From Planctomycetota bacterium (lineage in GTDB: Bacteria > Planctomycetota > Planctomycetia > Planctomycetales > Planctomycetaceae), in assembly GCA_963694825.1 (NCBI GenBank), contig CAVOEV010000001.1:223-64222 (forward strand): a stretch of DNA of 64,000 nt, in the 5' to 3' direction. The translations under genes were made by a program, and so were the position numbers. The notes under the pieces were generated by a model. It was not told the origin of the DNA. It ran no database searches and saw only the letters and a program-made list of their open reading frames with translations. Positions 47,983-64,000 of this stretch are shown here, piece by piece. How positions within the stretch are numbered: position 1 is the first letter of the stretch; each line of letters begins with the position of its first letter.

Positions 47983-48866
47983 GCAGCCTGCCGTTTCGGA
48001 AGAGTGTCAGTGTTGTCGGTCTGTTCGGGGGTGTCCCGCGGTACAGCCGATTTCGAGTTGCCGACCGGGTCACGGGCTCGGAGGTTGTGTCCCTGGTTCT
48101 GGCTGGTGATGAACGAGAGCCAGTGAGTCAGTTCGTGCGGCAGCTGGCCGTGGAGTTCGGCTTCGAAGTGTTGCTGGACGGTCTCGATGTTCTGGCGTTT
48201 GCGGAAGTGCATCCGGAAGGCCTGCCGGATCAGCATCATGGTGTCCGAGGGGATCCCTGCACGTTGCATCCCGATCTTGTTGATCGATGTCAGTCGCGGG
48301 TTGTCGCTGCCGGCGGCCAGCATGTAAGGGGGGATGTCGTGCGGGACGCGGCAGCCACCGCTGACGAACACCAGTGTGCCGATCGAGGAGTAGTGGTGGA
48401 CGACCGAGTTGCCCGAGATGATGGCTCGGTCGGCGACATCGACATGTCCTCCGAGCAGGACACCATTGACCAGGATCACGTCGTTGTGCACATGGCAGTT
48501 GTGAGCCACATGGGCGTTGGCCATTAGCAGGTTGCGGTTCCCGATCCGTGTTGTCCCGTCGTCCTTTTCGGCCCCGCGATTGATCGTGACCCCTTCGCGA
48601 AACATGTTGTCGTTGCCGATGAGCAGGCGAGTTTCGGATTCTTCGTAGCTCTTGTCCTGAGGATCGGCACCGATGACGCAGTGTGGCAGAAAGCGGTTGT
48701 TGCAGCCGGTTTCGGTGTTTCCGGTGAGCACGACATGGCTGTCGAGTCGAGTACCTTCGCCGAGTCGGACTCCTGGTCCCACCAGGCAGAACGGGCCGAT
48801 GGTGACATCGGAACCGAGCAGAGCCGCCGGATCGACATGGGCCAGTGGTGAGATGTTGGCAGGCAT
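47979..48866 (-). CDS. lpxA: Acyl-ACP--UDP-N-acetylglucosamine O-acyltransferase
   Basis: MPANISPLAHVDPAALLGSDVTIGPFCLVGPGVRLGEG... gives left-handed beta-helix hexapeptide repeats followed by a helical C-domain. ATG 48866. The rest of the 499-aa ORF runs over lpxC in another frame. Confidence 0.9.
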   Translation of the reverse strand: MPANISPLAHVDPAALLGSDVTIGPFCLVGPGVRLGEGTRLDSHVVLTGNTETGCNNRFLPHCVIGADPQDKSYEESETRLLIGNDNMFREGVTINRGAEKDDGTTRIGNRNLLMANAHVAHNCHVHNDVILVNGVLLGGHVDVADRAIISGNSVVHHYSSIGTLVFVSGGCRVPHDIPPYMLAAGSDNPRLTSINKIGMQRAGIPSDTMMLIRQAFRMHFRKRQNIETVQQHFEAELHGQLPHELTHWLSFITSQNQGHNLRARDPVGNSKSAVPRDTPEQTDNTDTLPKRQAA

Positions 48867-48891
48867 GGTGCTTTGTGGGGGGTGACTGGAT

Positions 48892-49830
48892 TCAGGCTGC
48901 GTTGAGGGAAGCCACAGGTTGTTGTTGTTGTTGCAGGTCGAGGAGTTGAGCAGTGGCTTGGTGGTTGTGGGTGTGTCCGGTCCGGCAGGCGTGGATGTGT
49001 CCCCAGAGGTCGGTGCCCAGCAGGGCGAAGTCACCGATGCAGTCGAGGATTTTGTGTCGAGCGCATTCGTCGGGGAACAGCAGCGGGTTGTCGATCGGTC
49101 CCTGGGGTCCGAAGACGAGCAGGTCTTGGTGAGTGAGTCCGTTGCCGAGTCCCTGTTTCCTGAGGGCTTCGACTTCGCTGTCGAGGACGAATGTGCGGCA
49201 GCCGGCGATTTCGGTCGCGAACTGATCGGGGTCGAGCTCAAACGTACGAGTTTGTGGCCGGATGGGTGACTGGGTTCCATAGTCGAGGTGATAGGTGATG
49301 GCGAGTCCGGGTCGAGCCATCGGTCTGAGCGTGATGTTCTGTTCGGGTGTGCCGAGCGAGAGGACTCGATCGATGACCTGACAGGGTCGTGCTGCGTCCT
49401 GGGTGACTCGACCGGCTTCAAGAATCGCATCGACGACTGGTCGACAGGATCCGTCGAAGCCTGGCGGTTCGGGGGCATCGAGCGTGATCAGGCAGTTGTC
49501 GATCTGCATTCCGGCGAGTGCAGCAACGACGTGTTCGACGAGTTCGACGACGATGCCCTCGCGTCCGATGGCGGTCCGCCGTTGTCGGGGCAGTACGAAC
49601 TGGCGGGTGGCCGGGATAGGTTGTGAGCCGGCGCAATCGAGTCTCTGGAAGGCGAGTCCCAATCCGGGTTCAGCCGGGTGGAGCCCCAGGTGGACGGTCG
49701 ATCCGGTGACAAAGCCGACCCCCTGGCATTCGACGGAACGGCCCAGTGTGCACTGGTTTCTAAACGACCGAAGCGGGCTGACCCGTGCGGGCGTTGTGTG
49801 CAGCGGCTGTTCAGTGCAGGTGACTGGCAT
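48892..49830 (-). CDS. lpxC: UDP-3-O-acyl-N-acetylglucosamine deacetylase
   Basis: GVGFVTGSTVHLGLHPA, VELVEHVVAALAGMQIDN and DPLLFPDECARHKILDCIGDFAL are LpxC signatures. There is no fused FabZ domain. Confidence 0.9.
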   Translation of the reverse strand: MPVTCTEQPLHTTPARVSPLRSFRNQCTLGRSVECQGVGFVTGSTVHLGLHPAEPGLGLAFQRLDCAGSQPIPATRQFVLPRQRRTAIGREGIVVELVEHVVAALAGMQIDNCLITLDAPEPPGFDGSCRPVVDAILEAGRVTQDAARPCQVIDRVLSLGTPEQNITLRPMARPGLAITYHLDYGTQSPIRPQTRTFELDPDQFATEIAGCRTFVLDSEVEALRKQGLGNGLTHQDLLVFGPQGPIDNPLLFPDECARHKILDCIGDFALLGTDLWGHIHACRTGHTHNHQATAQLLDLQQQQQPVASLNAA

Positions 49831-49964: not shown

Positions 49965-50618
49965 TCAGCGGGTCTTGGTCTTGGTGGCTCCGACCGGCTG
50001 AGCGCCGGTGCGTGGTGCAGGAGATTCCTTGACGAATTGTTTGTTGAGGAATTCGATGACCGGCTTGGTGATGTCGTCTTCGGGCCGGTGGTAGACCACT
50101 TGGCGTTGGAGTTCTCCGACGACGCTGTCGGGCGTCGTAGTGTTCGAGGCGGAGCTGTTGAATCGCAGGACCAGTGTGTAGCCCCAGGCGTCGGCGGCTC
50201 GTTTGACGACCGCCTTGATTTCGCCATGGATGGTCTTGAGCAGTTGCGCTTCGCGTCGGAGTATCCGTTTGCGTTCGTTCTTGTTGAACACGACCAGTTC
50301 GGCCTTGACCTGGTCGGCTTGTTGTTCGAGTTCAGCAGCCTTGGCACTACCGCGTTCGATGCTGCCAGATTTGAGTCTCTTGTCGAGTGTTTCGAGCTGT
50401 TTCATCATGGCAGCACGCTTAGGTTCACTCTTGGCGATCTCTGCTTTGATCTCTGCTCGAAGGGCATCGACTTTTTTGTACTTTTTGAGTACTCCGGCGA
50501 TGTCAATCAGTGCGATCTTGTGCGGACTCGACGGTGACGTCGTGTCCTGGGCAAGGGTTCCGGCGGACGGTGCGACCAAGAGGATGGTGGCGACGAGAAT
50601 AAAAGCGAATCTAGTCAC
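49965..50618 (-). CDS. OmpH/Skp family periplasmic chaperone
   Basis: The GTG start at 50618 lies 10 nt after AAGGAG. Signal peptide TRFAFILVATILLVAPSAGTLAQ. Long K/E-rich helices (VLKKYKKVDALRAEIKAEI...), then YTLVLRFNS. Confidence 0.8.
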   Translation of the reverse strand: MTRFAFILVATILLVAPSAGTLAQDTTSPSSPHKIALIDIAGVLKKYKKVDALRAEIKAEIAKSEPKRAAMMKQLETLDKRLKSGSIERGSAKAAELEQQADQVKAELVVFNKNERKRILRREAQLLKTIHGEIKAVVKRAADAWGYTLVLRFNSSASNTTTPDSVVGELQRQVVYHRPEDDITKPVIEFLNKQFVKESPAPRTGAQPVGATKTKTR

Positions 50619-50739
50619 GGCCGAGACACTCCTTGTTTTGCTTGGCAGTGCCTGAGCGAGGTACGAGCTGGAAGGGCGATTGGCAGCTTCCGTGCTACTG
50701 TCTCGGTCAGACGAATCCATTCGTTGACTGTTTGGCGAG

Positions 50740-50769
50740 TTATATGGCAAAGATGTCGGAACACGTCAA
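50740..50769 (-). promoter_or_regulatory. Candidate sigma70-type promoter (TTGACG-N17-CATATA) for skp-lpxC-lpxA
   Basis: Read on the minus strand in the 313-bp intergenic region, about 120 nt upstream of the skp start. Sequence resemblance only. Confidence 0.3.
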
Positions 50770-50931
50770 TAGGAGTGTTGCGGCGATTGCCTCCTGAAAT
50801 CTTGAATCGGCTCAGTAGCTCGCGGCTCTGGATTCCAATTGCGCAGATTTGGGAAAATGGGTCGACTTTTTCGGTTGTGCCACTCGTACTGGCCAGTGGG
50901 TCCGTCGCGCCCGATCTGTTGCAACACTCGT

Positions 50932-51753
50932 CTAGGACTTGGGAGTGGGAGTCCAGAGCGGGTTGCTGATCTGTGTTTCGGCACGTTGTCGTCGGCGTGC
51001 CTTGATGCGAACGTAGGGCGGGAAGAAGCGTCCGCGGTGTCGAAAGTCGCCTGGCTGTGCGGTCCGATCGGCTCGGAGCGGTTCGCGGAGGTCTTCGATG
51101 ACGAAGCCGGCCTGGCAGAGAGTTCCGACGAGTTCTTCCCACCGGTGCAGGAACTCGACAGTTCCTTGTTCGCGGTAGGCTGAATCGGGCACATCCGGCA
51201 GCGGCCCTTCGTGGTAGTACTCAATCCCGACGACATATCGATCGCGTCGGTCACGGTGCGAGACCTGGAGGCTGGCGGGTTGTTTGTGTTGGCTGACGTA
51301 AAGTCCTCCGTCGCGAAGGACACGAGCGACCTCACGAAACACCGGTTCCAGCGAGGGGACATAGCAGGTGCTGACAGGTTGATGAACGATATCGAAGGCT
51401 TCGTCTCTGAGAGCTGAGAGGTCATCCATGGAGGCTTGGACGACATCGACCTGGAGCCGTCGTTTTTTGGCTTCGCGGCTGTCGATGGCCAGCATCTCGT
51501 CGCTGATGTCGACGACGGTGACGCGTGCTCCGGCGGCGGCGTAGAGAATCGACTGCCAGCCACCGGCAGCAGCAAGGCAGAGCACATCCAGTCCCTGCAC
51601 GCTTGCCGGCAACCAGCCTCGGCCGTCGAGCACATCGAGAGGATTGGCGAGTTCGGAGTCGGTGACCACTCGGGCGAACTGGCTGCCCGCCCGGACCAAC
51701 CGGTTCCATGCCGCCTGGTTGTGACGCAGGAATTCGGATCCGGAAGCGGTCAT
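50932..51753 (-). CDS. Class I SAM-dependent methyltransferase
   Basis: SAM-binding motif DVLCLAAAGGWQS...VTVVDISDEML...VLRDGGLYV. ATG 51753. The track's 51891 start is an extension. Confidence 0.8.
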   Translation of the reverse strand: MTASGSEFLRHNQAAWNRLVRAGSQFARVVTDSELANPLDVLDGRGWLPASVQGLDVLCLAAAGGWQSILYAAAGARVTVVDISDEMLAIDSREAKKRRLQVDVVQASMDDLSALRDEAFDIVHQPVSTCYVPSLEPVFREVARVLRDGGLYVSQHKQPASLQVSHRDRRDRYVVGIEYYHEGPLPDVPDSAYREQGTVEFLHRWEELVGTLCQAGFVIEDLREPLRADRTAQPGDFRHRGRFFPPYVRIKARRRQRAETQISNPLWTPTPKS

Positions 51754-51779
51754 GGCGAGGTGTTGGTGTTGCGAGTGGG

Positions 51780-52949
51780 TCAGTCGCTGGTGGGGTCGGT
51801 TGCTCCGATGAGGGCACCGACCCAGGTGACCAGGTCGCCTCGGCTGCGGGCGGTGTCGCGGAGCAGGTCGAGTCGTCCGGTGGATTGGCACAACTCGGAG
51901 AAGCTGAATCCGGTGGAGTCTTCGAGATGGGCCAGGTGGGTGACGGCAAGTTCGACCGCGTCATCCACCCGCCCAATCCGTCTCAGCAGGTCCACAACCA
52001 CGTAGGCGATCAGCTGCTTGTCTTCTTCATCGGGTTCGGCTTCGAGTTGGCCGGCGAAGTAGTCGACGGCTTCATCGCGTCCGTCATCGAGCAGGGCACG
52101 GAGGAAGTGTCCGTGTGCGGTGTAGAAGTCGCCGAAGGGGACTTCGCCGGCGTAGTGGAACTGCTGGTCGAGTCGTTGGCCGTATTCGGCCAGTTCGAGA
52201 GCTTTCTGGAGATCGGGGGAGTCGTTTTCCAGGAAGCGTGCGAAGCGAACGACGGAGCTGAGGTGCGAGACATCAATGTGGTAGTTGTTGTCGGCGAAGA
52301 GCCAGTCGCGGTCACCGGCGATGAGTTCCCGGAGGTTGTCGGACGGTTCGATCATCGGCAGTCTTTGTGTGATTTCGGCACTGATCGTGTGGCAGAGGTC
52401 TCCGTAGAGTTGTTTGACGAGCAGCGAGGCTGCGGCGCGTCGGTCGTCGGGCGGCAGTTGGGTGATCTGCTGGTCGAGTGCGGTGATGGTGTTGCAGGTG
52501 CCGTGCGAGTTGAGCATCAGCTCGAGACCCTTGACCGGGTGAGCTCCTTCGTAGAGGGCCACGTTGATCAGTTCTTCGGTCTTCTCGTAGTCCTCGCCAT
52601 CGGAAGCAACCTGTTCGAGTGCTTCTCGGACGGGGCCGGGTTCCTGGATGGTTTGGAAATACACCCACGCATCACCGACGCGTCCTTTTTCGAGCAGCAG
52701 TCGACCGACAGTTCGGGCGGACTCGACATAGTGCGTCTCGAACCCGCTGCGGTCGTCGTCGGGGACATCGTCGAACGAGGTGGGCCGCACCAAAGGCAGC
52801 TGGAGTTCGAGTTTCTTCTGCATCAGCAGGACGTCGAACAGCCGATGGTAGTTCGCTTCGTCGGTCAGCACTCGAGCCAATTGCTCGAGTGCTGCCTGTG
52901 GTCCGTCGTTTTGCTGAAGTTCTTCGAGCGTGGCAAACGTGTCACTCAT
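51780..52949 (-). CDS. Hypothetical all-helical cytoplasmic protein
   Basis: Protein-like composition (MSDTFATLEELQQNDGPQAALEQLARVL...), with ATG 52949 after GAGAGA. The long + strand ORF over it is G/V/E/D-rich shadow. No recognised domain. Confidence 0.65.
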   Translation of the reverse strand: MSDTFATLEELQQNDGPQAALEQLARVLTDEANYHRLFDVLLMQKKLELQLPLVRPTSFDDVPDDDRSGFETHYVESARTVGRLLLEKGRVGDAWVYFQTIQEPGPVREALEQVASDGEDYEKTEELINVALYEGAHPVKGLELMLNSHGTCNTITALDQQITQLPPDDRRAAASLLVKQLYGDLCHTISAEITQRLPMIEPSDNLRELIAGDRDWLFADNNYHIDVSHLSSVVRFARFLENDSPDLQKALELAEYGQRLDQQFHYAGEVPFGDFYTAHGHFLRALLDDGRDEAVDYFAGQLEAEPDEEDKQLIAYVVVDLLRRIGRVDDAVELAVTHLAHLEDSTGFSFSELCQSTGRLDLLRDTARSRGDLVTWVGALIGATDPTSD

Positions 52950-53002
52950 CGGTTGGTCTCTCGTGGTGGACTGACCCGGGGCCAATCATTATGCCGGTCA
53001 TC

Positions 53003-54799
53003 TTAGGATGTGGGAAGTGCCCGACCGGTCGGTTCGACCATCACCAGTCCGCGGAAGTCTCCGTTGGATTCCAGCAGACCGATCACGGTTTCGTGTTGAG
53101 TGTGGAGTCCGAGTACGGAACGCGGTGTGAGGGGGGGGGCGAGGCTGCGGTAGAGGACCAGTTGCGAGTCGCCGAGTCGGGCTCGGAATCCGACAGCCTG
53201 TTGTGTCGATACGACCTGTCGGTTTTCGGTCACGGTGAGGCGATTCCATTCGGGTCGGCTTCGCGATCGGTGTTTGGAGAAGTCGATGACGAGTGGCAGG
53301 TAGAGTGCGGGTCCGGTTCCGGCGTGTGTCCATTCGAGTCGCCTGTCGTGGCAGTCGATGCTGGATCGTCCGGTGGCTAGCAGCGGGTCGTCGGGCAATG
53401 CCAGCGGGAGGATGCGTGCCACGCCGCCGACTCCTTTGATTTTCCAGTCTCGGCGGCCGGTGCGTGCGGGGCCGGCGACGACGCCGTGTGCGAGTCCGAG
53501 GCTGGAGCGGACGGTGAGTGGTGTTGTGTTGGCGGGCTGGTCGGTGTCGGGAGATGCGGGCGTGTTGATGACAACGTCGGCGAGCACGAGCAGTTCTTCT
53601 GATCGCGAGAGCAGGATCTGGCGGTCGACTCGCCGTCCCTGTCCCGCATCGGCCTGCAATTCGATGTAGTCGGCGTCGTCGTCGCTTTGCCAGCAGACAC
53701 AGGTCCAATCGTCCAGGACCCAGTCCGAGTGACCACAGGTGACGCGTATCGACCAGGCGTCCTGCAGCAGTGAGCGGCCGTCGACGGACAGGTCGAGTTC
53801 CGGTTTGGGGCCGTCGTGGGTGACCAGCAGGGCCGGAGTCCGTGTTGGTGTGTCGCATTGGAGCATGGCGACGTGAGCCCAATCGGACTGAGTCCTGGTT
53901 GGTTGGTTGGGGTGTGTGGCGAGGCGGTTGGCTTCATCGAGCAGTTCGCGGAGTCCTCGGGTCGGCCGTTTCGAGAGGGCCAGTCGGTTCGGGTGTCGGT
54001 AGAGCGAGTTGGTCAATGCGACCAGGCGGTCGAAACGTTTCTTGGCAGTCGTGTTCCAGGTCGGTGATGCCAGTCGTCGTCCCCAGTATTCAGAGCGAAC
54101 GAGGGAGCCGAGCCATTCGGGGAGGTCTGCGAGGATTCCGGCGTGCGGTGTACCGTCGGTGTCGGTTCGTTCGAGCAGTTCTTCTTGGAGTGCTCGACGG
54201 CCGTCTTGTCTGAGCCTGGCGGTACCTTTGAGTGGTGCGAGCAGCAGGCCGGTGGTGAATGCGAGTTCGGGGGAGAGCGAGCGGGTGGCGGTGAGTTGAA
54301 TGACGTTTTTCCAGGCGGTGAGCCATTGGATGGTTCGATGTGGTGGCGTGGGCAGGCCAAGTAGAGCGAGAGCGGCCAGCAGGTCGCCATCCGAAGCGCC
54401 GGGTTCGAGTCGTGTGAGGTAGGGTAGGGGCGATCGATGTGGGTCTCGGCCACCGATGGTTGGCCGACCTTGAGCCGGCTGGTTCGCCGTCTGTGTTCGC
54501 GTCGCGGCTCGCCAGGCCGCTGACAGGTTGGGTTGAACGGCGATCCATTCAAAGGCCTTGCGAGGAAGTTGGCGATTGTTCGAGTCGATTCGGCAAGTCA
54601 GTTGATCGAACCAGAGGCGGACAAACCTGACGGAGTCCTGTTGGGCGGCTGCCTGTCTGAGTGCCTGCGGCGCCCCTCGATCAAATTCGAGTCCGCTCAG
54701 GAATGTACTCAGCGCGTCGCTGTTGTTGTGCTCGTCGCCGGGATGTCCGGAGTTGGCGTCGGTGTCGGCGTCGGCGTCGGCGTGGGGACGGATGGTCAT
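53003..54799 (-). CDS. Hypothetical protein (598 aa) with an acidic N-terminus; there may be a distant polysaccharide-lyase/heparinase-II/III-like architecture
   Basis: Long ORF co-directional with its neighbours, starting 6 nt after the amidohydrolase stop. The family suggestion is only a weak impression from the C-terminal beta-rich half. Confidence 0.6.
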   Translation of the reverse strand: MTIRPHADADADTDANSGHPGDEHNNSDALSTFLSGLEFDRGAPQALRQAAAQQDSVRFVRLWFDQLTCRIDSNNRQLPRKAFEWIAVQPNLSAAWRAATRTQTANQPAQGRPTIGGRDPHRSPLPYLTRLEPGASDGDLLAALALLGLPTPPHRTIQWLTAWKNVIQLTATRSLSPELAFTTGLLLAPLKGTARLRQDGRRALQEELLERTDTDGTPHAGILADLPEWLGSLVRSEYWGRRLASPTWNTTAKKRFDRLVALTNSLYRHPNRLALSKRPTRGLRELLDEANRLATHPNQPTRTQSDWAHVAMLQCDTPTRTPALLVTHDGPKPELDLSVDGRSLLQDAWSIRVTCGHSDWVLDDWTCVCWQSDDDADYIELQADAGQGRRVDRQILLSRSEELLVLADVVINTPASPDTDQPANTTPLTVRSSLGLAHGVVAGPARTGRRDWKIKGVGGVARILPLALPDDPLLATGRSSIDCHDRRLEWTHAGTGPALYLPLVIDFSKHRSRSRPEWNRLTVTENRQVVSTQQAVGFRARLGDSQLVLYRSLAPPLTPRSVLGLHTQHETVIGLLESNGDFRGLVMVEPTGRALPTS

Positions 54800-54805
54800 C
54801 GGAAT

Positions 54806-56008
54806 TCAGGCGGCCTGCCAGCGGCCTCGACGGAGGACTCCGGCAATGCGACCGCATTCGAGGAGGGATGTGAGAGTGAGTGATGTATTGGGGTCGGGTT
54901 GCAGGCCGATGGCGGTCGCCTGTTTTCCGGGTGCGAGCGAACCGCAGTCGTGTTCGATTCCGAGTGCTGCCGCGGGGGTCGAGGTGGCCATTGCCAGCAG
55001 TTCGTCGGCGGGGATGGTGTTGGTATGTCGTGCGAGGAATTGTAGCTCGTTCCAGATCGAGAGGTCGGGGTTGGAGGCTCGACTGTCGGTGCCCAGTGCC
55101 ACCGGTGTGCCCTGTTCGAGCAGACGTGGCCAGGGGTGAGGTGGGAGGCGAAAGTGAGCGTGAGTTCTTGGGCAGAAGACGACGGCGACATGAGTGTGTT
55201 GCCCGAGCCAGTTGATTTCGTCGTGATCGAGCAGGTTGCCGTGGATGACCAGTGGGTGCTGCAAGGGGGCGAGTGGGACGAGGTAGTCGAGCGGGCGAGT
55301 TGCATGGGGAATGGCCGAGTCATGCCACGCTCCGAGCGACTCGAGTCGTTGTCTCATCGGGCCGCTTCCGTGGGCGAGCAGTTGCAGTTCATCAGGGGAT
55401 TCGGCGAGGTGCGTGGCGAGTGGGACATCGTGGCTGGCGGCGAGTTGGATCAGGTCGTTGTAGAGGTTGGGGTGCACCGAGTAGGGAGCATGCGGGCTGA
55501 GTCCTCGGATGCAGCCGGGTGTTGCGGGTTGGGCGAGGAAGTTGCTGGCGGTGTCCAGGGCGTGCTCGTGTCGGTCGGGTCGCAGTGCGATGATTTCGCG
55601 AAAGACGACGCAGGTGGGGTCATCGGGTTTCAGGCGGGTTGAGTTCCAGTCGGCGGTCGCGATTTCGCCCACGGCTGCGGTGCCGGCCTTGTTGAGTTCC
55701 TGGAGGCCGATGCGGATCGGGTCGAGTTGGCTGGTTCGCTGTCGTCGGCTGTCGGTGACAGCTCCAATCCAGGCAGCCATGCCGTTGTTGGCGGCGAGTG
55801 GCTGGGTGATTGTCGAGAATTCGAGGTGTGTGTGGGCGTTGACCAGGCCGGGCAGCAGGACGATATTGCCGAGGTCGGTGGCTGAGCTGTCGGGGCCGGA
55901 AAAAATGTCGGTGATGATTCCGTCGGCGACTTCGACGATTCCGTTATGGATCGGCGGTCCGTCGCCGGTGACAACCAGCCTGGCGGAGAAACGGCCCGGT
56001 TCACTCAC
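54806..56008 (-). CDS. Amidohydrolase, aminofutalosine-deaminase / chlorohydrolase family
   Basis: LLPGLVNAHTHLEFS (HxH), GLSPHAPYS, ATHLAES and ALGTDS metal-ligand motifs. The GTG start at 56008 overlaps the upstream stop (GTGA). The listed 705-aa ORF is an extension over the permease. Confidence 0.8.
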   Translation of the reverse strand: MSEPGRFSARLVVTGDGPPIHNGIVEVADGIITDIFSGPDSSATDLGNIVLLPGLVNAHTHLEFSTITQPLAANNGMAAWIGAVTDSRRQRTSQLDPIRIGLQELNKAGTAAVGEIATADWNSTRLKPDDPTCVVFREIIALRPDRHEHALDTASNFLAQPATPGCIRGLSPHAPYSVHPNLYNDLIQLAASHDVPLATHLAESPDELQLLAHGSGPMRQRLESLGAWHDSAIPHATRPLDYLVPLAPLQHPLVIHGNLLDHDEINWLGQHTHVAVVFCPRTHAHFRLPPHPWPRLLEQGTPVALGTDSRASNPDLSIWNELQFLARHTNTIPADELLAMATSTPAAALGIEHDCGSLAPGKQATAIGLQPDPNTSLTLTSLLECGRIAGVLRRGRWQAA

Positions 56009-58395
56009 GCTGGGCTCCCAGACGCATTGGCGGACGTGTCTGGAGGCGTGGTTGTCCGTCCGAGTTTCACGAGCAGTGCCAGTGCGACCAGTGCGGCTGG
56101 CACAAGGACGGGCCAGTCGTAGTGCAATCCGGAGCCTCCTGCGGCAACGGTCACGCGTTCCTGGATGACTGAGATGGCGTTGAATGTGAGGTGGAACAGG
56201 AGTCCCGGCCAGATGCTTCGGGACCGGATGGCCAGCAGTCCGAGCACGAGTCCCAGCAGTGTGGCGTAGAACACCTGTTGGGGGATCATGTGGACGGCTC
56301 CGAAGGCGACGGCCGAGATCACGACGGCGAGTGTGTGTCGTCCGGGGCGGTTGAAGGCCGAGAGCACATAGCCTCGAAAAAGGAATTCTTCGCAGACGGC
56401 CGGCGTGACCGCGATCGCGAGCAGCACGAGCCATGCAGGTTGAGCGGGTCCGAGCATTTTTTCGAGGAAGTCTCGACTGCCTTCGGGCAAGCCTGGCGGG
56501 AAGAACCACTGGAGGTGGTTCATCAGTTCGTGGACGAGTGGGTGGAGTGCAACGGCGAGTGTGGTGGCGAGGGCGAGCGAAGCGATGGTGGGTTGTCGCA
56601 GTCGAAAAGTGGCTCGGACGTCCTTGAGCAGGGTGCAGGCGAGCAGCCAGGCGGGGAACAGGAACAGCAGGACTTGCTGAGCGATCAGTGCGTAGATGGC
56701 GGCGCGTGGTTGTTGGCTTGAGTCGAGCGAAGCGAGCCAGTTGCCCAGGGGTTGCATCAGCAGCAGTTGTCCGAGCATGGCAATGCCCAAGCAGGTCCAG
56801 GCGGCTGGGGGCCCGGGGAGGTTGGGTTTGTGAGTCCGGAGTCGTTTGAGCCAGAGTCTCAGGTCGAAGCGTTCGGCTTCGCGAAACAGCACCGATTCGC
56901 TGTGGAACTGTGCGACGGCCCACCAGAGTGCCAGGCCGGCGTAGGCAAAGCTGGCTGCGAGGACTGCGGGCAGGTAGGCGAGGGTTTCGGCCGAGTCGGG
57001 ATCGAGCATCAGTTGTTTGAGCAGCAGAACCGGTCCGATGACGGGGAGGACCGAGTGAAACGGCTGGATGTCGATTCCCGGTGCGGCGGTCATGGCCACG
57101 AGCAGCATCACGACGATCATCAGTGGCGAGAGGTAGTATTGTCCTTCGCGCGTGCTGCGGGCGAAGGTGGCGAGTGCGAGACTGAGTGCGCTAAAGAGAG
57201 CGGCGAGGGGGACGAGCATGACCAGGATCCACAGCATGCCTGCGATCGAGGGGGCGACAACCGCGATCCCGGCGTCGGGATTGACCTGGGCGACGAGTTG
57301 GAACATGTAGCTGGCGGTCAGTCCGAGGCTGACAAGGTTCAGGAGTGCAGTGGTGAGGCTGAAGACGAGTACGGTGAAGAACTTGGCCAGGACCAGTTCG
57401 ATGCGTCGGACGGGGCTGATCAACAGTGTTTCCATGGTCCCGCGTTCCTTCTCGCCGGCGGCCAGATCGACTGCGGGGTAGAAGGCGCCGGTGACGGTCA
57501 TCAGGACCAGGATGATCGGGTAGAGTTTGCTCCAGACCAAAGCGGATTTCCGGGCTTCGCCAACCACCTGGACGACCGTGGCCGCGACGGGAGCGGGGAG
57601 CGACGTGGGCAGCCCGGCGGCTTCGAGTCTGAGTCGCAGCAGTTCCTGCTCCCAGGCCTCGAACACTCGCTCGACACGTCGTGAAGCGACCATCGACTTC
57701 TCGTCGCCGTTGACCAGGATCACGGGTCGGGGGTAGTCGGCGTCGGTCTGGTCTTGGTTCTGGTCTTGGTTCTGGTCTTGGTTCTGGTCTTGGTTCTGGT
57801 CTTGGTTCTGGCCTTGAGTTATCGACGCGATCTGTCGGTTGACCTGTTCGAGCCGATCTCGGAAGCCGTCGGGGATGACGACGAGCACATCGATGTGCGC
57901 ATCGCGGAGCATGGCGTTGATGGATTCGTTGAGTCGTGCCAGTTGGGATGCGGTGCCGGGTGTTTGGGGTTGTGGGGTGTCGTGGGTCGAGTCGATCAGT
58001 TGTTGTCGTTGCTGGTAGAGGCGGCGTACGTTGTGGGCGATTTCGAATCGCCGTGCGGGGTCGGTGTTGTCGGCGGCTTGTTTGGATGCTGATCCAGAGG
58101 TTTCGACAGTGAGTGTTCGTGCATCGTCGGGGTTGGCGAACCATCGTGAGTCGAAGGCGGATCCTTGGATCAGTTGGGGTTCGGGCAGCGAATTGGAGCC
58201 GAGAACGACGACGGTTCGGGGCTTTTCGTTGAAGAGGACTGCCATCTGCAGCATGCCGATCCCCAAGGCGGGGTAGAGCAGGACGGGCAGGGCCAGCACC
58301 ATGAACAGTGTGCGGCGATCGCGGATCTGGTCCCGGAGTTCTCGGAAGAACACGATTCGGATCTTGCGGAGATCGAGGCGAGGTGTGGCGGTCAT
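56005..58395 (-). CDS. ABC-2 (NatB-like) transporter permease fused to a CPBP/CAAX-type intramembrane glutamic protease domain
   Basis: The N-terminal part has one TM helix, a large extracytoplasmic loop and 5 further TM helices (ABC-2 layout). The C-terminal 230 aa carry the CPBP motifs EEFLFRG, FGAVH and HLTFN. Confidence 0.85.
57747..57818. repeat. 12-bp in-frame tandem repeat TCTGGTCTTGGT x5 plus a degenerate sixth copy
   Basis: Read directly. It encodes (QNQD)n in the extracytoplasmic loop of the ABC-2/CPBP protein. Confidence 0.95.
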
Positions 58396-59194
58396 GAGCG
58401 GGTTTCGGGTCCGTCATCGTGTTCTATGTCGTTGGTTGTCGACTGGGCCGGAGTCCTGTCGTGTTCGAACTGCGAGACGATGCTGAAGAAGTGTTCCTCG
58501 AGGTTGGGTTGGTTGGATTCGGCGAGGATGTCGGCTTGTGTCCCTGTAGCGAGGATGCTGCCCCGGTGGATGATGGCCAGTCGATCGCACAGCCGTTCGA
58601 CCTCGCTCATGATGTGCGTCGAGTAGATGATGCATTTGCCCTGGTCTCTGAGTCGTGCAACGGTATCGAGTACGGCTCGAGCGACGAGCACATCGAGGCC
58701 ATTGGTGGGCTCGTCGAAGATCAGGACTGGCGGGTCGTGGACGAGGGCACGAGCGATCGAGACTTTTTGTCTCATCCCGGTCGAGAGTCGGATATTGAGT
58801 GTGTCGGCGAATTCGTGGATCGAGAGTTTTGTGAAGAGGTCGTGGATGGTCTTGGCCAGGCGAACTTCATCGAGTCCATGGAGTCGCCCGAAGTACTCGA
58901 CCGTTTCGCGGGCGGTCATGCGGTCGTAGAGGCCGGTGGTTCCGGAGAGGAACCCGATGCAGGATCTGACCTGTCCGGGGTGCTGAACGATATCGTGTCC
59001 GTCGATCGATGCGGTCCCGGCGGTGGGTGAGAGGATGGTGGCGAGTAGTCTGAGGCAGGTGGTTTTTCCGGCTCCGTTTGGTCCGAGCAATCCGAAAATT
59101 TCACCGGGTGCGACATCGAAACTGACGGAATCCAGAGCGACGACTTCGCCCTGCTGCAGATCGGGGAAGGTCTTGGAGAGGTCCCGAACCCGGA

Positions 59195-59198
<4 letters not shown>
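58392..59198 (-). CDS. ABC transporter ATP-binding protein (NatA-like)
   Basis: Walker [10 protein letters not shown], signature LSTGMRQK, Walker B VLIFDEP. ATG 59198 overlaps the upstream stop (ATGA), and its own stop overlaps the permease start (ATGA). Confidence 0.9.
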
Positions 59199-60319
<1,121 letters not shown>

Positions 60320-60375
60320 GGCGAGGGGGTTGTTCTGTTGTGTGGGTGGGGTTGGGCGTGGATTGACGGTGAGAA

Positions 60376-61239
60376 TTAACCGGGATGCAGGATGGGCTGT
60401 GCGGTTAGAGTGGTGTCGCGGAAGATCAGTTCGAGGTTGTCGGAGGCGAGGCCCTGTTCGACGGCCAGTCGTTGGAACAATTCCATCCCGTACCGTTCGG
60501 CTGCTCCGAGGTGGAAGTGCAGGTTGTGCTTGAGGTAGTCGGCGGCTGCGGAACTCGAGATGCCAAGTGCGTCCGATTCGCGTTGTGCGATTTGATCGAG
60601 ACGTTCGAGTCCGAGGTCTCGGGCTGTGGCGAGTGTTTCGGGGACCCGTCCGAGTGGTGTACCGCGTCGAGTGGCCCAGACGGCGAACACGAAGGGCAAC
60701 CCGGTCCATTGGCTCCAGACTTCGCCCAGATCCCAGGTCGCGATGAAGGACTCGTCCAACGGACGCATCGCGCGGTCGCCAATCAGCAACACGGCGTCGG
60801 CCGAGCTGGCATCGACGGATCGACCCAGCGGTAAGGGTTCGAGTTCGGGGTGTAAGCCGTACTGTTCGGCGAGGAGAATTCGGGCCAGAGCTGCACTGGT
60901 GCGTGATCCCTCGTCGAGAGCGAGGGTTGTGATCGAGTTCACTGGGACACGGCTGTAGAGCTTGACCGAGAGGACCGGGCCATGAGTGGCGACGCAGGCG
61001 TCGGTGACCACTTCGTAGTTGGAATTACGGAGACACTCGATCGATGGCACCAGGGCCACATCCAGTCGACCGGCCTCGAGATCGTCGGCCAGGCGGCTGG
61101 GATAGTCGAGCACCAAGATGGCACCAGGGGCCATTCGAGATAACTCGGACTCGAGACCCTCTATCAATGGCTTGGAGTTCAGGTAATTGACCGCACCGAT
61201 GCGGATTCGCGGCGGATCGGTCGGCACCGCATTACTCAT
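60376..61239 (-). CDS. mqnA: Chorismate dehydratase (menaquinone via futalosine, step 1)
   Basis: IRIGAVNYLNSKPLIEGL, DVALVPSIE and PFVFAVWATR are the MqnA/periplasmic-binding-like fold signatures. ATG 61239. Confidence 0.85.
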   Translation of the reverse strand: MSNAVPTDPPRIRIGAVNYLNSKPLIEGLESELSRMAPGAILVLDYPSRLADDLEAGRLDVALVPSIECLRNSNYEVVTDACVATHGPVLSVKLYSRVPVNSITTLALDEGSRTSAALARILLAEQYGLHPELEPLPLGRSVDASSADAVLLIGDRAMRPLDESFIATWDLGEVWSQWTGLPFVFAVWATRRGTPLGRVPETLATARDLGLERLDQIAQRESDALGISSSAAADYLKHNLHFHLGAAERYGMELFQRLAVEQGLASDNLELIFRDTTLTAQPILHPG

Positions 61240-61542
61240 GTGACCTGGTGACTCGATGTCGGCAAGAGAATGGGAAACAACAGGAGCGGGCATTATAAGG
61301 TCTCGTGGTGGGTCTCTGAAACCGTCGGATGATCGGCTTCTGGTCAGTTGCAGGAGTCCAGCGTCTGCCGGTACGTCCTGCTGTTGGGTTGACCGTGCTG
61401 GGCGCGGCCTTTTAACGGCCAATTGTCCTTTTCCCCGGCATGCTCGGCGTTGGCCTGGGGAAAAGTGAAAACCGTTCATCCGTTCTGGCGCCTGCGACCG
61501 ATAGTGCGAAACAGACACATCGGAGACTCCCGATGCAACATA

Positions 61543-61571
61543 TTGACTCGAACAGTGTCTCTGGATACGAT
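61543..61571 (+). promoter_or_regulatory. Candidate sigma70-type promoter (TTGACT-N17-TACGAT)
   Basis: Read directly in the 458-bp intergenic region, about 125 nt upstream of the DUF1501 ATG at 61698. Confidence 0.3.
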
Positions 61572-61697
61572 CCACTCGGTCGATGGCACAGAGTTTCGGC
61601 CGACGGAGTTGTAGTGCTGTTGCGCGTTGGGCGAGATGTGTTGGCTACTGAGTGAGCAGTGTGGTGGGACCGGGTCTGTCTTTGAGGGAGATGTATC

Positions 61698-62999
61698 ATG
61701 TTGACAGTGACAACGGATCGACGTTACCGGGACTGCGACGGGACGACACGTCGTGACTTTCTGCGGGTTGGCGGCTTGGGGGCGATGGGTCTGGGCGGTT
61801 TGATGCAGGCTCGCAGTGCCGTCGCGGCGGCCAGCGGTCAATCTGCGAATCAGACGTCGGTGGTATGGCTCTGGCTGGGCGGCGGTCCGACACATGTCGA
61901 GACATTCGACCCGAAGATGACGGCTCCGGTCGAGTACCGCAGCGTGACGGGTGCAGTCCAGACACGGATCCCGGGCGTTTCTCTGGGCGGCAATTTTCAG
62001 CAGATGGCCCAGGTGGCCGACAAGATGGCATTTGTCCGCTCTTTTCATCATGGCAACAGTGGTCATGGTGGCGGGACGCACTGGGTGATGACCGGCTACA
62101 ACAACCGCGGCATCGACAACGGCGGCCTACCTTCACGGCCGTCGATCGGATCGATCGCATCGAAGTCCCGCGGTCCGAACCATCGGGACACGGGGATGCC
62201 GACGTACGTGCGGATTGGTGGGATTGCTTCTGACGGCCCGGCCTTTCTGGGCACACCGTACGCTCCGTTTGGCAGCAGTGGCGAGGCCCGCAACAACATG
62301 AATCTGCAGACTCGGGTCGAACGTCTCGAGGACCGGCGTGGCCTGTTGAGTGGTCTGGACCGTTTACGCCGCACGGCAGACCGCAACGGCGTCGTCGAGG
62401 GACTCAACGCTTTCGAGCAGCAGGCCTTCAACCTGGTATTGGGCAAGGCGCCTCGAGCATTTGATCTGAAGCAAGAGGATCCTCGCACGGTCGCCAAGTA
62501 CGGTAGTGGCCTGGGCAGCAGCCTGTTGATGGCTCGACGATTGTGCGAAGCCGGCTGTGGTTTTGTGACGATGTCGTATGGTGGATGGGACATGCACAGC
62601 AACATCGAGGGTGCGATGAACAGTCGCGGGCCGGTTGTCGACCGCGCGGTGTCGACATTCGTGGACGACGTGAGTCAGCGTGGTTTGTCGGACCGGATCC
62701 TGTTGGTGATCACCGGCGAATTTGGTCGGACTCCAAAGATTAATCGTAATCGGGGACGTGACCACTGGGCACCTCTTTCGACGCTGGCTCTCTCGGGTGG
62801 CGGATTGCGGATGGGCCAGGCGGTTGGGGAGTCCGACACCAAGGCCTACCGGCCCAAGAGCGATCCAGTCACGCCTCAGGACCTGATGGCCACGGTGTTC
62901 CACGTACTGGGCATCGATCCTCAGATCCAGTTCAGCGATCCGGGTGGTCGACCCGTGTCGATGATTGAGGACGGCGAGGCGATTGCGAGCCTGGTCTGA
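61698..62999 (+). CDS. DUF1501 domain protein (second copy)
   Basis: TRRDFLRVGGLGAMGLGGL leader, WLGGGPTHVETFDPK and RDHW. It is a paralogue of 41892..43283. Confidence 0.85.
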   Translation: MLTVTTDRRYRDCDGTTRRDFLRVGGLGAMGLGGLMQARSAVAAASGQSANQTSVVWLWLGGGPTHVETFDPKMTAPVEYRSVTGAVQTRIPGVSLGGNFQQMAQVADKMAFVRSFHHGNSGHGGGTHWVMTGYNNRGIDNGGLPSRPSIGSIASKSRGPNHRDTGMPTYVRIGGIASDGPAFLGTPYAPFGSSGEARNNMNLQTRVERLEDRRGLLSGLDRLRRTADRNGVVEGLNAFEQQAFNLVLGKAPRAFDLKQEDPRTVAKYGSGLGSSLLMARRLCEAGCGFVTMSYGGWDMHSNIEGAMNSRGPVVDRAVSTFVDDVSQRGLSDRILLVITGEFGRTPKINRNRGRDHWAPLSTLALSGGGLRMGQAVGESDTKAYRPKSDPVTPQDLMATVFHVLGIDPQIQFSDPGGRPVSMIEDGEAIASLV

Positions 63000-63038: not shown

Positions 63039-64000
63039 TCAGTGTCGGCAGCAGCGGCGAAACAGCACTCCGCCGGCGACCAGCAGCATCCCGTTGCCGA
63101 TCCACATGGCCCAGGCCGGGTCGATCGCCCCGGCCCGTGATTGGCTCATGCAGAGAATCACGATCGGGTAGTAGAGCAGGATGATTGGAAGGAAGCAGAT
63201 GAGGAAATTGGTCAGGATTTGTCGTCTCGCCTGCGTGATGGCCAGCGGGGCTCCGACGAGGACGAAGAAGAAACAGCTGCTGGAGAAGGCTATCCGGCTG
63301 TGCAGTTCGGTTCTCAGTCTGGCATGAGTCGAGTGCAGGTCTTTGACTTGTCGTGCGGCGGTCTTGTCGAGTGACCACGACTGGAAGTCCCCGGTGGTCA
63401 AGTTGAAGCAGGCCTTGATGGCTTTGTGTTCGTCGATTGCTTTGAGTTGACGTTCCTGTTCGGCGAGTTGTCGTTCGAGCGTATCGATACTCATGTGTCT
63501 CGGCTTGGCGCGATTCAGGCCTCCGGGCAGTGGCAGAGCCCGTGTCTCTTCGGCGAGCCAGATCGACCCGTGACCGGGCACATCGAGGTGGCAATCGGTG
63601 AGTTTCAGGAGTATTCGTCCCTGTTGGGAATCGAATTCGAGGCTGGCCTGTCGCGCCTGTGCGGTGACGGGGTGTCCACCGGCCGAGGTGAACTTGACGA
63701 TTGGGCGTTGCAGTGTCTGCCCCGAGACACCTCGGACGGAGATCGACATACCGGCCTGCGGCAGGGCGAGTTCGTTCTGAGTCTTGAGCATGTCGAGCAC
63801 GATGTCTTCCATGGCCATGGCGACCACGCTGCGGATATTGCCGACGGACCAGGGGATGGCCTGGTCGGTGAGCATCAGCGATCCGGCGCTGAGAAGGCCT
63901 CCGAGGAAGAGGGCGGGCCAGAGCATAGTGAGGATGGGGATGCCGGCCGCTTTGGCTGCCGTAACTTCCTGGTTGGCGGCCATTCGGCCATAGACGATAC
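63039..64000 (-). CDS. LptF/LptG family permease, 5'-truncated by the window end
   Basis: C-terminal 3-TM bundle (RIAFSSSCFFFVLVGAPLA..., FLPIILLYYPIVIL, WAMWIGNGMLLVAGGVLF). The reading frame stays open to position 64000 (..IVYGRMAANQE). Confidence 0.8.
   Translation of the reverse strand, partial: IVYGRMAANQEVTAAKAAGIPILTMLWPALFLGGLLSAGSLMLTDQAIPWSVGNIRSVVAMAMEDIVLDMLKTQNELALPQAGMSISVRGVSGQTLQRPIVKFTSAGGHPVTAQARQASLEFDSQQGRILLKLTDCHLDVPGHGSIWLAEETRALPLPGGLNRAKPRHMSIDTLERQLAEQERQLKAIDEHKAIKACFNLTTGDFQSWSLDKTAARQVKDLHSTHARLRTELHSRIAFSSSCFFFVLVGAPLAITQARRQILTNFLICFLPIILLYYPIVILCMSQSRAGAIDPAWAMWIGNGMLLVAGGVLFRRCCRH

Follow-up and report, generated by a model that had tools for sequence, protein, structure and literature searches.

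A conserved neighbourhood of futalosine-pathway genes and an ABC-2 permease/CPBP protease module in Planctomycetia

The gene cluster and its junctions

The stretch of DNA analysed here comprises 64,000 nucleotides (nt) of contig CAVOEV010000001.1 from a bacterium of the Planctomycetaceae, phylum Planctomycetota; the whole of these 64 kb is called the window below. Its minus strand carries five uninterrupted open reading frames (ORFs) in the order mqnA, mqnC, a gene for the ATPase of an ATP-binding cassette (ABC) transporter, a gene in which an ABC-2 permease is fused to a CPBP protease domain, and a gene for an aminofutalosine-deaminase-like amidohydrolase. The order, coordinates and strand given for these genes by a first-pass annotation, made from the sequence alone, hold: the translations are clean and the Pfam and NCBIfam assignments agree. 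The ATPase and fusion genes (together called the module) recur between mqnC and the amidohydrolase gene in several groups of Planctomycetia. This conserved neighbourhood appears to be undescribed, while the protein family of the fusion is already curated. The features of the cluster are the following (aa, amino acids; SAM, S-adenosylmethionine).

61292..61320, minus strand: promoter-like site TTCAGA-17-TATAAT, 10/12 consensus matches, about 50 nt before the mqnA start
60376..61239, minus strand: mqnA, chorismate dehydratase, 287 aa (PF02621, 8.4e-54)
59195..60319, minus strand: mqnC, cyclic dehypoxanthinyl futalosine synthase, radical SAM, 374 aa (TIGR03699)
58392..59198, minus strand: ABC transporter ATP-binding subunit, DrrA/NodI-like as paired with ABC-2 permeases, 268 aa (PF00005)
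56005..58395, minus strand: ABC-2 permease/CPBP fusion gene, 796 aa (ABC2_membrane_2/3 and PF02517)
56902..58395, minus strand: ABC-2 (type V) permease half of the fusion, residues 1-498 (PF12698, PF12679)
57747..57816, minus strand: 12-nt tandem repeat coding for (QDQN)n, 5.8 copies, 98% identity
56056..56811, minus strand: CPBP (Rce1-like, glutamic-type) protease half of the fusion, residues 529-780 (PF02517, 3.9e-21)
54806..56008, minus strand: amidohydrolase, 400 aa, GTG start (PF01979, Amidohydro_1)

The three 4-nt junctions noticed in the first-pass annotation are present as given. The ATGA at 59195-59198 is shared by the mqnC stop and the ATPase start, the ATGA at 58392-58395 by the ATPase stop and the start of the fusion, and the GTGA at 56005-56008 by the stop of the fusion and the GTG start of the amidohydrolase. 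Between mqnA and mqnC there is no overlap but a gap of 56 nt.

MqnA finds its best PDB matches in the chorismate dehydratases 7ahr (1e-34) and 2nxo (1e-34). The radical SAM protein, which had been left as either MqnE or MqnC, scores 469.1 bits on TIGR03699 (MqnC; cut-off 428.1). Its identification as MqnE was rejected, the 341.9 bits obtained on TIGR03700 lying below the cut-off of 434.55; judged by these scores the enzyme is MqnC and not MqnE. For the amidohydrolase the best NCBIfam model is NF006269 (aminofutalosine deaminase family) with 131 bits, below the cut-off of 320, and the best PDB matches are DR_0824 (2imr, 1.5e-24), 7lkj (an entry named 'Aminofutalosine deaminase', 2.6e-17) and 3v7p/4m51. 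We take DR_0824, 7lkj and Nis0429 (3v7p) to be characterised aminofutalosine deaminases; DR_0824 and 3v7p were reportedly treated as such by Goble et al. in 2013. MqnA, MqnC and the deaminase catalyse early soluble steps that precede prenylation, and not the prenylation, decarboxylation or methylation steps. In the 64-kb window mqnB, mqnD, mqnE and any further mqn paralogue were not found.

Architecture of the permease-CPBP fusion

The fusion is one polypeptide with PF12698/PF12679 over residues 15-490 and PF02517 over residues 654-741. It scores 540.9 bits on the NCBIfam model NF041647 (ABC_perm_CPBP, curated cut-off 435) in two stretches, the best of which aligns residues 217-746 with positions 118-634 of the 636 of the model. 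On this score the permease-CPBP fusion is not new and belongs to the curated family NF041647. More than 3,000 homologues were found, the nearest being those of Planctomycetota such as Gimesia, Schlesneria and Planctopirus; many homologues bear the automatic JGI name 'sodium transport system permease protein'. The best NCBIfam match of the ATPase is the drrA subfamily (227.7 bits, below the cut-off).

The permease half is formed by an N-terminal helix, the first transmembrane helix (TM1), an extracytoplasmic domain of ~225 residues and TM2-TM6, and bears an invariant 13-residue motif. The CPBP half contains CEEFLFRG (56394-56371), FGAVH (56304-56290) and HLTFN (56193-56179), so that the catalytic motif set EExxxR, FxxxH and HxxxN/D is complete. 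Residues E669, E670, R674, H702, H735 and N739 are invariant among 80 Planctomycete homologues as well as in a combined alignment of Planctomycete and Firmicute sequences. The fused architecture and the intact CPBP motifs, both proposed in the first-pass annotation, are confirmed.

The full-length AlphaFold2 model, built with the 80-sequence alignment, is confident (mean predicted local distance difference test, pLDDT, 85.4; predicted template modelling score, pTM, 0.74). A short poorly ordered linker (residues 499-528) connects the permease to an eight-helix bundle. The (QDQN)n repeat is located inside the extracytoplasmic domain, and the confidence of the model is low there (pLDDT ~54). Close homologues are 9-13 residues shorter than the window fusion, so that the copy number of the repeat may be variable.

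For the N-terminal half, a Foldseek search of the PDB retrieved type V (ABC-2) exporters only: the insect ABCH-9C with ceramide (8yzp), a mycobacterial ABC efflux pump (8k1p), NosY, ABCA1/4, ABCG5/8, TarG, KpsM and Wzm. E-values reach 4e-4 at best, and the probability is 1.0 for the first 14 matches except ranks 7, 10, 12 and 13, where it is 0.99; the query being a multi-domain protein, TM-scores are low. The CPBP domain modelled alone (pLDDT 93, pTM 0.90) has its best PDB fold match in SpdC of the SagB-SpdC complex (6u0o_A, probability 1.0, TM-score 0.51/0.56), and Rce1 is not among its top 50 Foldseek matches. Comparison of the fusion profile with PDB sequences gave nothing meaningful. From its motifs and modelled fold the CPBP domain is predicted to be a glutamic intramembrane protease.

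Conservation of the arrangement in Planctomycetia

Gene order around the fusion was studied in the best 80 genome loci encoding relatives of the fusion, a sample dominated by Planctomycetota, in which homologues of the window genes were located by tblastn. A simple ORF caller gave antisense artefacts, and the conclusions on gene order rest on the tblastn matches together with called genes. The ATPase gene lies directly upstream of the fusion in 76 of the 80 loci. The mqnA-mqnC pair is found directly upstream of the module on the same strand in 39 of the 64 loci that are informative on this side (mqnC is located within 10 kb in 3 more), and the amidohydrolase gene directly downstream of the fusion in 29 of the 62 that are informative on the other. 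Among the 53 loci informative on both sides, 20 contain the full block, 13 only mqnAC, 6 only the amidohydrolase and 14 neither. Other neighbours of the window, though they lie inside the same flank length, are seldom kept in the 80 loci (LptF/G in 2, OmpH in 5, the LpxA-like gene in 5). The arrangement is thus beyond chance, its recurrence in Planctomycetia being much more frequent than that of the other window neighbours. In this respect the first-pass annotation, which had proposed comparative synteny as a check, is confirmed: the gene order is conserved in many related genomes from several orders of Planctomycetia.

The full block is present in Planctomycetaceae, Gimesia, Pirellulales, Lacipirellulaceae, Thermoguttaceae and Isosphaeraceae, as well as in a complete Singulisphaera genome. 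In a neighbour-joining tree of the fusion protein, which is not a species tree, it occurs on both deep branches, and the loci without it are scattered over several clades. This distribution implies that the mqnAC-module-amidohydrolase arrangement was ancestral in the sampled Planctomycetia and has been lost repeatedly and independently, so far as gene order and a protein tree can tell. In the cultured Planctopirus ephydatiae the ATPase and fusion genes stand as a pair alone among unrelated neighbour genes, away from the mqn genes.

The co-directional string of the window extends past the amidohydrolase with three more genes.

53003..54799, minus strand: 598-aa ORF without family match, its start 6 nt past the stop of the amidohydrolase
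51780..52985, minus strand: 401-aa ORF without family match, belonging to the extended block of Planctomycetaceae
50932..51753, minus strand: class I SAM methyltransferase, likely ATG at 51753 (PF08241, 1.4e-17), last gene of the extended block

The 598-aa ORF is probably on the amidohydrolase transcript. It follows the amidohydrolase in 7 of the 80 loci; the 598-aa, 401-aa and methyltransferase genes are kept in 6-7, the 401-aa ORF with 49-67% identity in 6. The cultured Gimesia aquarii has the exact eight-gene order of the window by independent Pfam calls, with ORFs of 633 and 388 aa, also lacking a Pfam match, at the positions of the 598-aa and 401-aa ORFs. The latter two ORFs of the window have no match in Pfam, NCBIfam or PADLOC. 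The methyltransferase is weakly UbiE-like (PF01209, 28 bits), and its Gimesia aquarii counterpart matches PF01209. Its assignment as a MenG/UbiE orthologue was rejected (TIGR01934, 32 bits against a cut-off of 158), and it is not counted as a menaquinone gene.

The same neighbourhood was approached from the mqnC side in the best 80 metagenome loci encoding MqnC relatives. Here 54 of 60 informative loci have mqnA as the gene immediately before mqnC. Where MqnC has at least 62% identity (44 informative loci), the next gene is the ATPase in 21 (17 with the fusion on the contig), the amidohydrolase in 6, which are Planctomycete-like, and another gene in 17. The 16 informative loci with a distant MqnC (52-60% identity, taxa not known) have the amidohydrolase directly after mqnC in 2 and the ABC module there in 0. 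In locus L125 the amidohydrolase gene even overlaps mqnC by 4 nt. Such adjacency without the ABC module means that the amidohydrolase is tied to mqnAC in its own right; judged by the pattern in these samples, the position after mqnC seems to be occupied by the ABC module in Planctomycetia specifically. At two loci, L121 and L138, the orthologous ATPase follows mqnC with no recognisable permease/CPBP gene within 8 kb. In the former (L121:9134-11200) about 1.3 kb past the ATPase contain no plus-strand ORF of at least 200 aa, which may be due to gene decay or to an assembly problem.

A second ABC module is found upstream of mqnA in another lineage, where the order is aroA (5-enolpyruvylshikimate-3-phosphate synthase), a 335-aa protein without family, an ATPase, a 592-aa membrane protein of PF16949 ('ABC_tran_2') and then mqnA, and where the amidohydrolase follows mqnC directly. 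This order is seen in L125 (147-9372), L122, L123, L128, L136, L141 and L144. Four loci, L073 (Lacipirellulaceae), L095, L098 and L132, have both ABC modules, one on each side of mqnAC. Homology between the PF16949 permease and the fusion was considered and rejected, none being detectable (hhalign probability 0.8%), and the two modules are treated as unrelated. The closest homologues of the PF16949 protein are all from Planctomycetota. The window contains neither the PF16949 module nor aroA.

Spacers, coupling and promoter-like sites

Gaps between genes were measured from the stop codon to the best-fitting start codon. In relatives mqnA and mqnC mostly overlap, the ATPase-to-permease gap is at most 10 nt in 28 of 76 loci, and the median permease-to-amidohydrolase gap is 59 nt. 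From mqnC to the ATPase the median distance is 158 nt, and the two genes overlap in only 3 of 46 loci, which are close relatives of the window. As read from these distances, translational coupling of mqnC and the ATPase is specific to the lineage of the window.

The site at 61320-61292 is the best promoter-like site in 50500-62000 and the sole good one on the minus strand near the cluster; from its position before mqnA and its match to the consensus, it may be the promoter of the entire string. A strong analogous site is located upstream of mqnA in Gimesia aquarii. Terminator-like sites in the window cluster are at chance level when compared with shuffles. Consensus promoter and terminator counts are near the shuffle expectation and so neither support nor exclude internal signals. 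Given the overlaps and the lone promoter-like site upstream of mqnA, the ABC module is very probably co-transcribed with mqnAC in the window genome.

The mqnC-to-ATPase spacers of relatives are truly non-coding and often have a hairpin directly after the mqnC stop (for example L084, 9080-9233). A -10-like motif, TA[AGC][AG][CGA]T, often as TGnTAnnnT, is present in 27 of 35 spacers, where shuffled sequences give 9.9, an enrichment that is indicative only, the motif having been defined after inspection of the sequences. It is mostly located 77-125 nt before the ATPase start and is absent from the last 300 nt of the window mqnC. Rfam searches that covered the window cluster and that of Gimesia detected no known RNA element at or close to the spacers. 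The conserved spacer element (loci L004-L080) could be a promoter or an RNA element absent from Rfam, and the module may have its own transcription start in most relatives.

The first-pass view of a transporter embedded in and coupled to the quinone genes thus stands for the window itself, by its overlaps and the co-transcription they imply; the coupling is not shared by most relatives, in which mqnC and the ATPase are apart. Of the decoupling signals that it had named as refuting, the window cluster has no good internal promoter-like site, and terminator-like sites are at chance; most relatives possess a spacer with the -10-like motif.

The module outside Planctomycetota

Contexts outside Planctomycetota come from tblastn against plasmids and from a homologue search seeded with a protein of Paraclostridium. 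This protein, encoded on a Paraclostridium sordellii plasmid, is collinear with the window fusion (27% identity over 498 aa, E 1e-56) and reaches 704 bits on NF041647 over the full model. On the plasmid the ATPase and fusion genes follow genes for LanM, two lichenicidin-type LanA2 peptides, a flavodoxin, a peptidase-containing ABC exporter and regulators, which is the usual place of lantibiotic immunity genes. Fusions of the NF041647 type are also common in Peptostreptococcaceae (C. difficile, Romboutsia, Paraclostridium), and the ATPase adjoins the fusion in L081, L085 and L086 too. Clostridioides difficile and Romboutsia ilealis carry the ATPase-fusion pair by itself, with unrelated genes around it. 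No mqn genes were seen in the neighbourhood of the Paraclostridium, C. difficile and Romboutsia loci; adjacency of module and mqn genes is accordingly not universal, being absent also from Planctopirus and from 14 of the 53 Planctomycete loci. Bacteriocin genes, genes for ribosomally synthesised and post-translationally modified peptides (RiPPs) and precursor-peptide genes were found in neither the window nor the related Planctomycete loci, the only case being the Paraclostridium plasmid. The fusion and the Paraclostridium protein both give weak matches to models of the SagH permease and of the MroQ/Mrt CPBP proteins. PADLOC has no match for the fusion and only generic ABC-like matches for the ATPase, and assigns no defence system.

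A side observation at the C. difficile locus is an Amidohydro_1 gene (L085:2686-3867) 1.3 kb upstream of the pair, with a cotA-like gene on the other strand between them; this is probably a coincidence.

Similarity to known systems

The Firmicute members of NF041647 share with the window protein the collinear succession of TM1, extracytoplasmic domain, five transmembrane helices, linker and CPBP domain, the motifs AGEKERGT(M/L)ETLL and PA(I/V)CEE..FRG, and a cognate ATPase gene directly upstream, usually overlapping. They differ in that their identity to the window protein is only ~27%, the window extracytoplasmic domain with its (QDQN)n is ~110 residues longer, and the context in the window is mqnA-mqnC plus an aminofutalosine-deaminase-like gene. 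No experimental characterisation of any NF041647 member was found in the literature, where the family was seen only as a domain match of a CPBP gene that stands by itself in a lantibiotic island of Listeria.

With CPBP/Rce1-like proteases (Rce1, MroQ, SpdC, Abi immunity proteins and myxosortase-type Mrt) the window protein has in common PF02517, the three motifs and the eight-helix bundle, but its CPBP domain is covalently fused to an ABC-2 permease. It also differs from SpdC, which reportedly lacks the catalytic residues, in keeping all of them. No CAAX-type or sorting-signal substrate and no candidate substrate gene was seen for the window CPBP domain. The type V exporters (ABCH-9C, 8k1m/n/p, NosFY, ABCA1/4, ABCG5/8, TarGH, Wzm-Wzt and KpsMT) have the same six-helix ABC-2 core and a large domain between TM1 and TM2, the ATPase being a separate subunit in the window; none of those named carries a protease domain.

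Protease-coupled ABC systems offer a possible analogy, a transporter being coupled to a peptide-processing protease in peptidase-containing ABC transporters (PCATs) with a C39 peptidase, in EcsAB-RasP and in SagE with SagFGHI; the computed part of this comparison is the weak SagH matches. In contrast to PCATs, the window ABC fold is type V and not type IV, its protease is intramembrane and glutamic and not a cytoplasmic cysteine peptidase, and no precursor peptide gene accompanies it. As for futalosine clusters, the window has a bona fide mqnA and mqnC and an amidohydrolase whose nearest PDB relatives are the presumed aminofutalosine deaminases, but no described cluster with an ABC transporter or CPBP protease was found. 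An evolutionary survey of the futalosine pathway lists mqn genes in 4-5 of the 5 Planctomycetes genomes it examined, depending on the gene, and leaves gene order and transporters undiscussed. No paper in the literature searched treats futalosine together with CPBP or CAAX.

Flanking genes

The cluster is flanked by genes of outer-membrane biogenesis: an OmpH/Skp-like gene (49965-50750), a 499-aa hexapeptide/LpxA-type acyltransferase (47979-49478), with a GFO/IDH/MocA oxidoreductase (46900-47982) near them, and on the mqnA side an LptF/G permease (63039-63983). These flankers are seldom syntenic with the cluster in other genomes. Two DUF1501 paralogues, 31% identical, are located at 61698-62999 (plus strand) and 41892-43283 (minus strand); one of them is divergent from mqnA, with a 459-nt intergenic region between. 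In 18 other loci a homoserine dehydrogenase-like gene (identified by eye) occupies this place, divergent from the adjoining mqnA and ~4.6 kb upstream of the fusion (L006, L007, L011-L015, L018, L021, L023, L024, L028, L038, L040-L042, L048 and L050); these loci are mostly labelled Planctomycetaceae, Schlesneria and Fuerstiella. On the other side, a miaA-like gene (tRNA dimethylallyltransferase, also by eye) lies ~3 kb downstream of the fusion in L055, L062, L067, L068 and L069, mostly Pirellulales or Thermoguttaceae, which is probably local synteny only. GC skew, the strand asymmetry of G and C, is strongly positive in all 2-kb bins of the window (0.10-0.32) with a monotonic rise of the cumulative skew, and the 64 kb contain no strand switch and no origin or terminus signal in it.

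Interpretation

The explanation that we favour, and to which we give about an even chance, is that the ATPase and the ABC-2/CPBP fusion constitute an autonomous module with a core activity independent of menaquinone, inserted in an older mqnA-mqnC-amidohydrolase operon. The exporter would be a type V (ABC-2) complex of two ATPase and two permease subunits, in which a short cytoplasmic linker ties TM6 of each permease to an eight-helix glutamic intramembrane protease of its own. Using the energy of ATP hydrolysis, it would extract or expel a substrate embedded in the membrane, most probably a peptide or a molecule with a lipid anchor, and the CPBP domain, its catalytic residues being intact, would cleave or hold that substrate. 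Judging by the comparative data, the module may have been acquired between mqnC and the amidohydrolase in the ancestor of Planctomycetia, kept there in about half of today's lineages and lost from this position several times. In the marine Planctomycetaceae lineage of the window the ~160-nt mqnC-ATPase spacer would then have been lost, so that transcription of the module would now start at the mqnA promoter and its translation would be coupled to that of mqnC and the amidohydrolase. The module may have been retained through shared regulation or, if the amidohydrolase behind it needs transcripts that run through the module, through entrenchment. On this explanation co-expression with the early menaquinone genes in the window reflects shared regulation or an entrenched insertion and not a demonstrated pathway step.

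Several of the results given above speak against a dedicated role in quinone synthesis. Elsewhere the module occurs alone or with lantibiotic genes, mqnA-mqnC-amidohydrolase is contiguous without it in other lineages, the linkage has been lost several times independently, and most relatives have the ~160-nt spacer with its -10-like motif. The proposal of a transporter integral to quinone biosynthesis is not supported, given the stand-alone pairs, that of Planctopirus among them, and the operons without the module. Neither is the argument from Rce1, according to which a CPBP domain in this operon could handle prenylated or quinone intermediates: the neighbours belong to the early soluble steps before prenylation and provide no such connection.

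Several observations weigh against an independent module. Same-strand adjacency extends over four or more groups of family or order rank (Planctomycetaceae/Gimesia; Pirellulales including Lacipirellulaceae and Thermoguttaceae; Isosphaeraceae/Singulisphaera), with the 39 of 64 and 29 of 62 loci given above against 2-7 of 80 for other neighbours, and this is the pattern expected from selection for a functional link. The amidohydrolase stays beside the module in the 6 loci without mqnAC, and a second, non-homologous ABC module lies beside mqnA, a recurrent association with transporters that is hard to credit to accident alone. The spacer element, too, is less telling than its enrichment suggests: beyond the retrospective definition of the motif, no more than 6 of 23 stand-alone loci have it 60-140 nt before the ATPase, and a consensus promoter scan of the Gimesia and Singulisphaera spacers revealed nothing convincing.

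The conserved synteny, the persistence of the amidohydrolase and the second ABC module with aroA upstream of mqnA, together with the translational coupling in the window, speak for the module as a dedicated accessory of menaquinone biosynthesis in Planctomycetia, which we nevertheless regard as unlikely. By flipping, extracting or distributing them, the exporter might move menaquinone or its prenylated precursors from one membrane or leaflet to another, or else expel toxic nucleoside-like intermediates (aminofutalosine, futalosine, 5'-deoxyadenosine), with the CPBP domain as a polyprenyl-binding groove or as a processing protease of a late-pathway membrane enzyme. Its structural neighbours are indeed exporters of lipids or hydrophobic substrates (ABCH-9C with ceramide, ABCA1/4, ABCG5/8, TarGH), and SpdC, the best fold match of the CPBP domain, reportedly works on a polyprenyl-anchored substrate. 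But the Peptostreptococcaceae members have no mqn neighbours and one of them sits in a lantibiotic cluster, the module is apart from the mqn genes in Planctopirus and the 14 Planctomycete loci, the contiguous unit of mqnA, mqnC and amidohydrolase exists without it, the neighbouring enzymes catalyse early soluble steps, and no paper linking futalosine with CAAX or CPBP was found in the literature searched. A wider form of this idea takes in the second ABC module and aroA upstream of mqnA in other lineages: the early futalosine genes of Planctomycetia would be under selection to adjoin two unrelated ABC modules, both part of menaquinone physiology. The two modules might spread menaquinone or prenyl-naphthoquinone among the cytoplasmic membrane, its invaginations and the outer membrane, or export futalosine intermediates, and the CPBP domain would be a polyprenyl-recognising or processing element; we judge this proposal unlikely.

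The lantibiotic plasmid invites an explanation unrelated to quinones, in which the module serves self-protection or peptide handling and expels and cleaves membrane-active peptides (bacteriocins, lantibiotics, signal-peptide remnants) by analogy with LanFEG-type immunity transporters plus Abi/CPBP immunity proteins, or with SagE and SagGHI. It would account for the position of the Paraclostridium sordellii pair after LanM, LanA2, LanT and regulators, for the weak SagH and MroQ/Mrt matches, and for catalytic residues that are invariant across phyla. We think it quite doubtful nonetheless: the lantibiotic context is that of one plasmid, the Planctomycete loci have none of the peptide genes looked for and the window cluster has no room for one, the fusion is unmatched in PADLOC, and across Planctomycetia the gene behaves as a conserved orthologous chromosomal gene and not as an accessory island gene. 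A NatAB-type sodium extrusion pump, as in the automatic JGI/KEGG name, is very improbable. The permease does belong to the ABC2_membrane_2/3 families, which presumably include NatB, and many homologues carry that name, but the name is an automatic transfer, a strictly conserved and catalytically intact protease domain is left unexplained by it, and no sodium-related neighbours were seen at the window, Planctopirus and Gimesia loci.

Implications

If the module is indeed autonomous, the cluster presents an exporter/protease entrenched in a biosynthetic operon and warns against deducing function from the overlapping genes of one genome. The PF16949 module beside mqnA keeps a functional link open. 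Should both ABC modules prove to serve menaquinone physiology, the first transporter/protease component would be assigned to the futalosine route. Functional linkage of the ABC-2/CPBP module itself, if true, would mean an unrecognised transport or processing step in the menaquinone biology of a phylum with unusual membrane organisation, and would open a first way into the physiology of ABC-2/CPBP fusions. To the uncharacterised family NF041647 the analysis adds a large, conserved branch in Planctomycetes and, in Gimesia aquarii, a cultured species with the same block.

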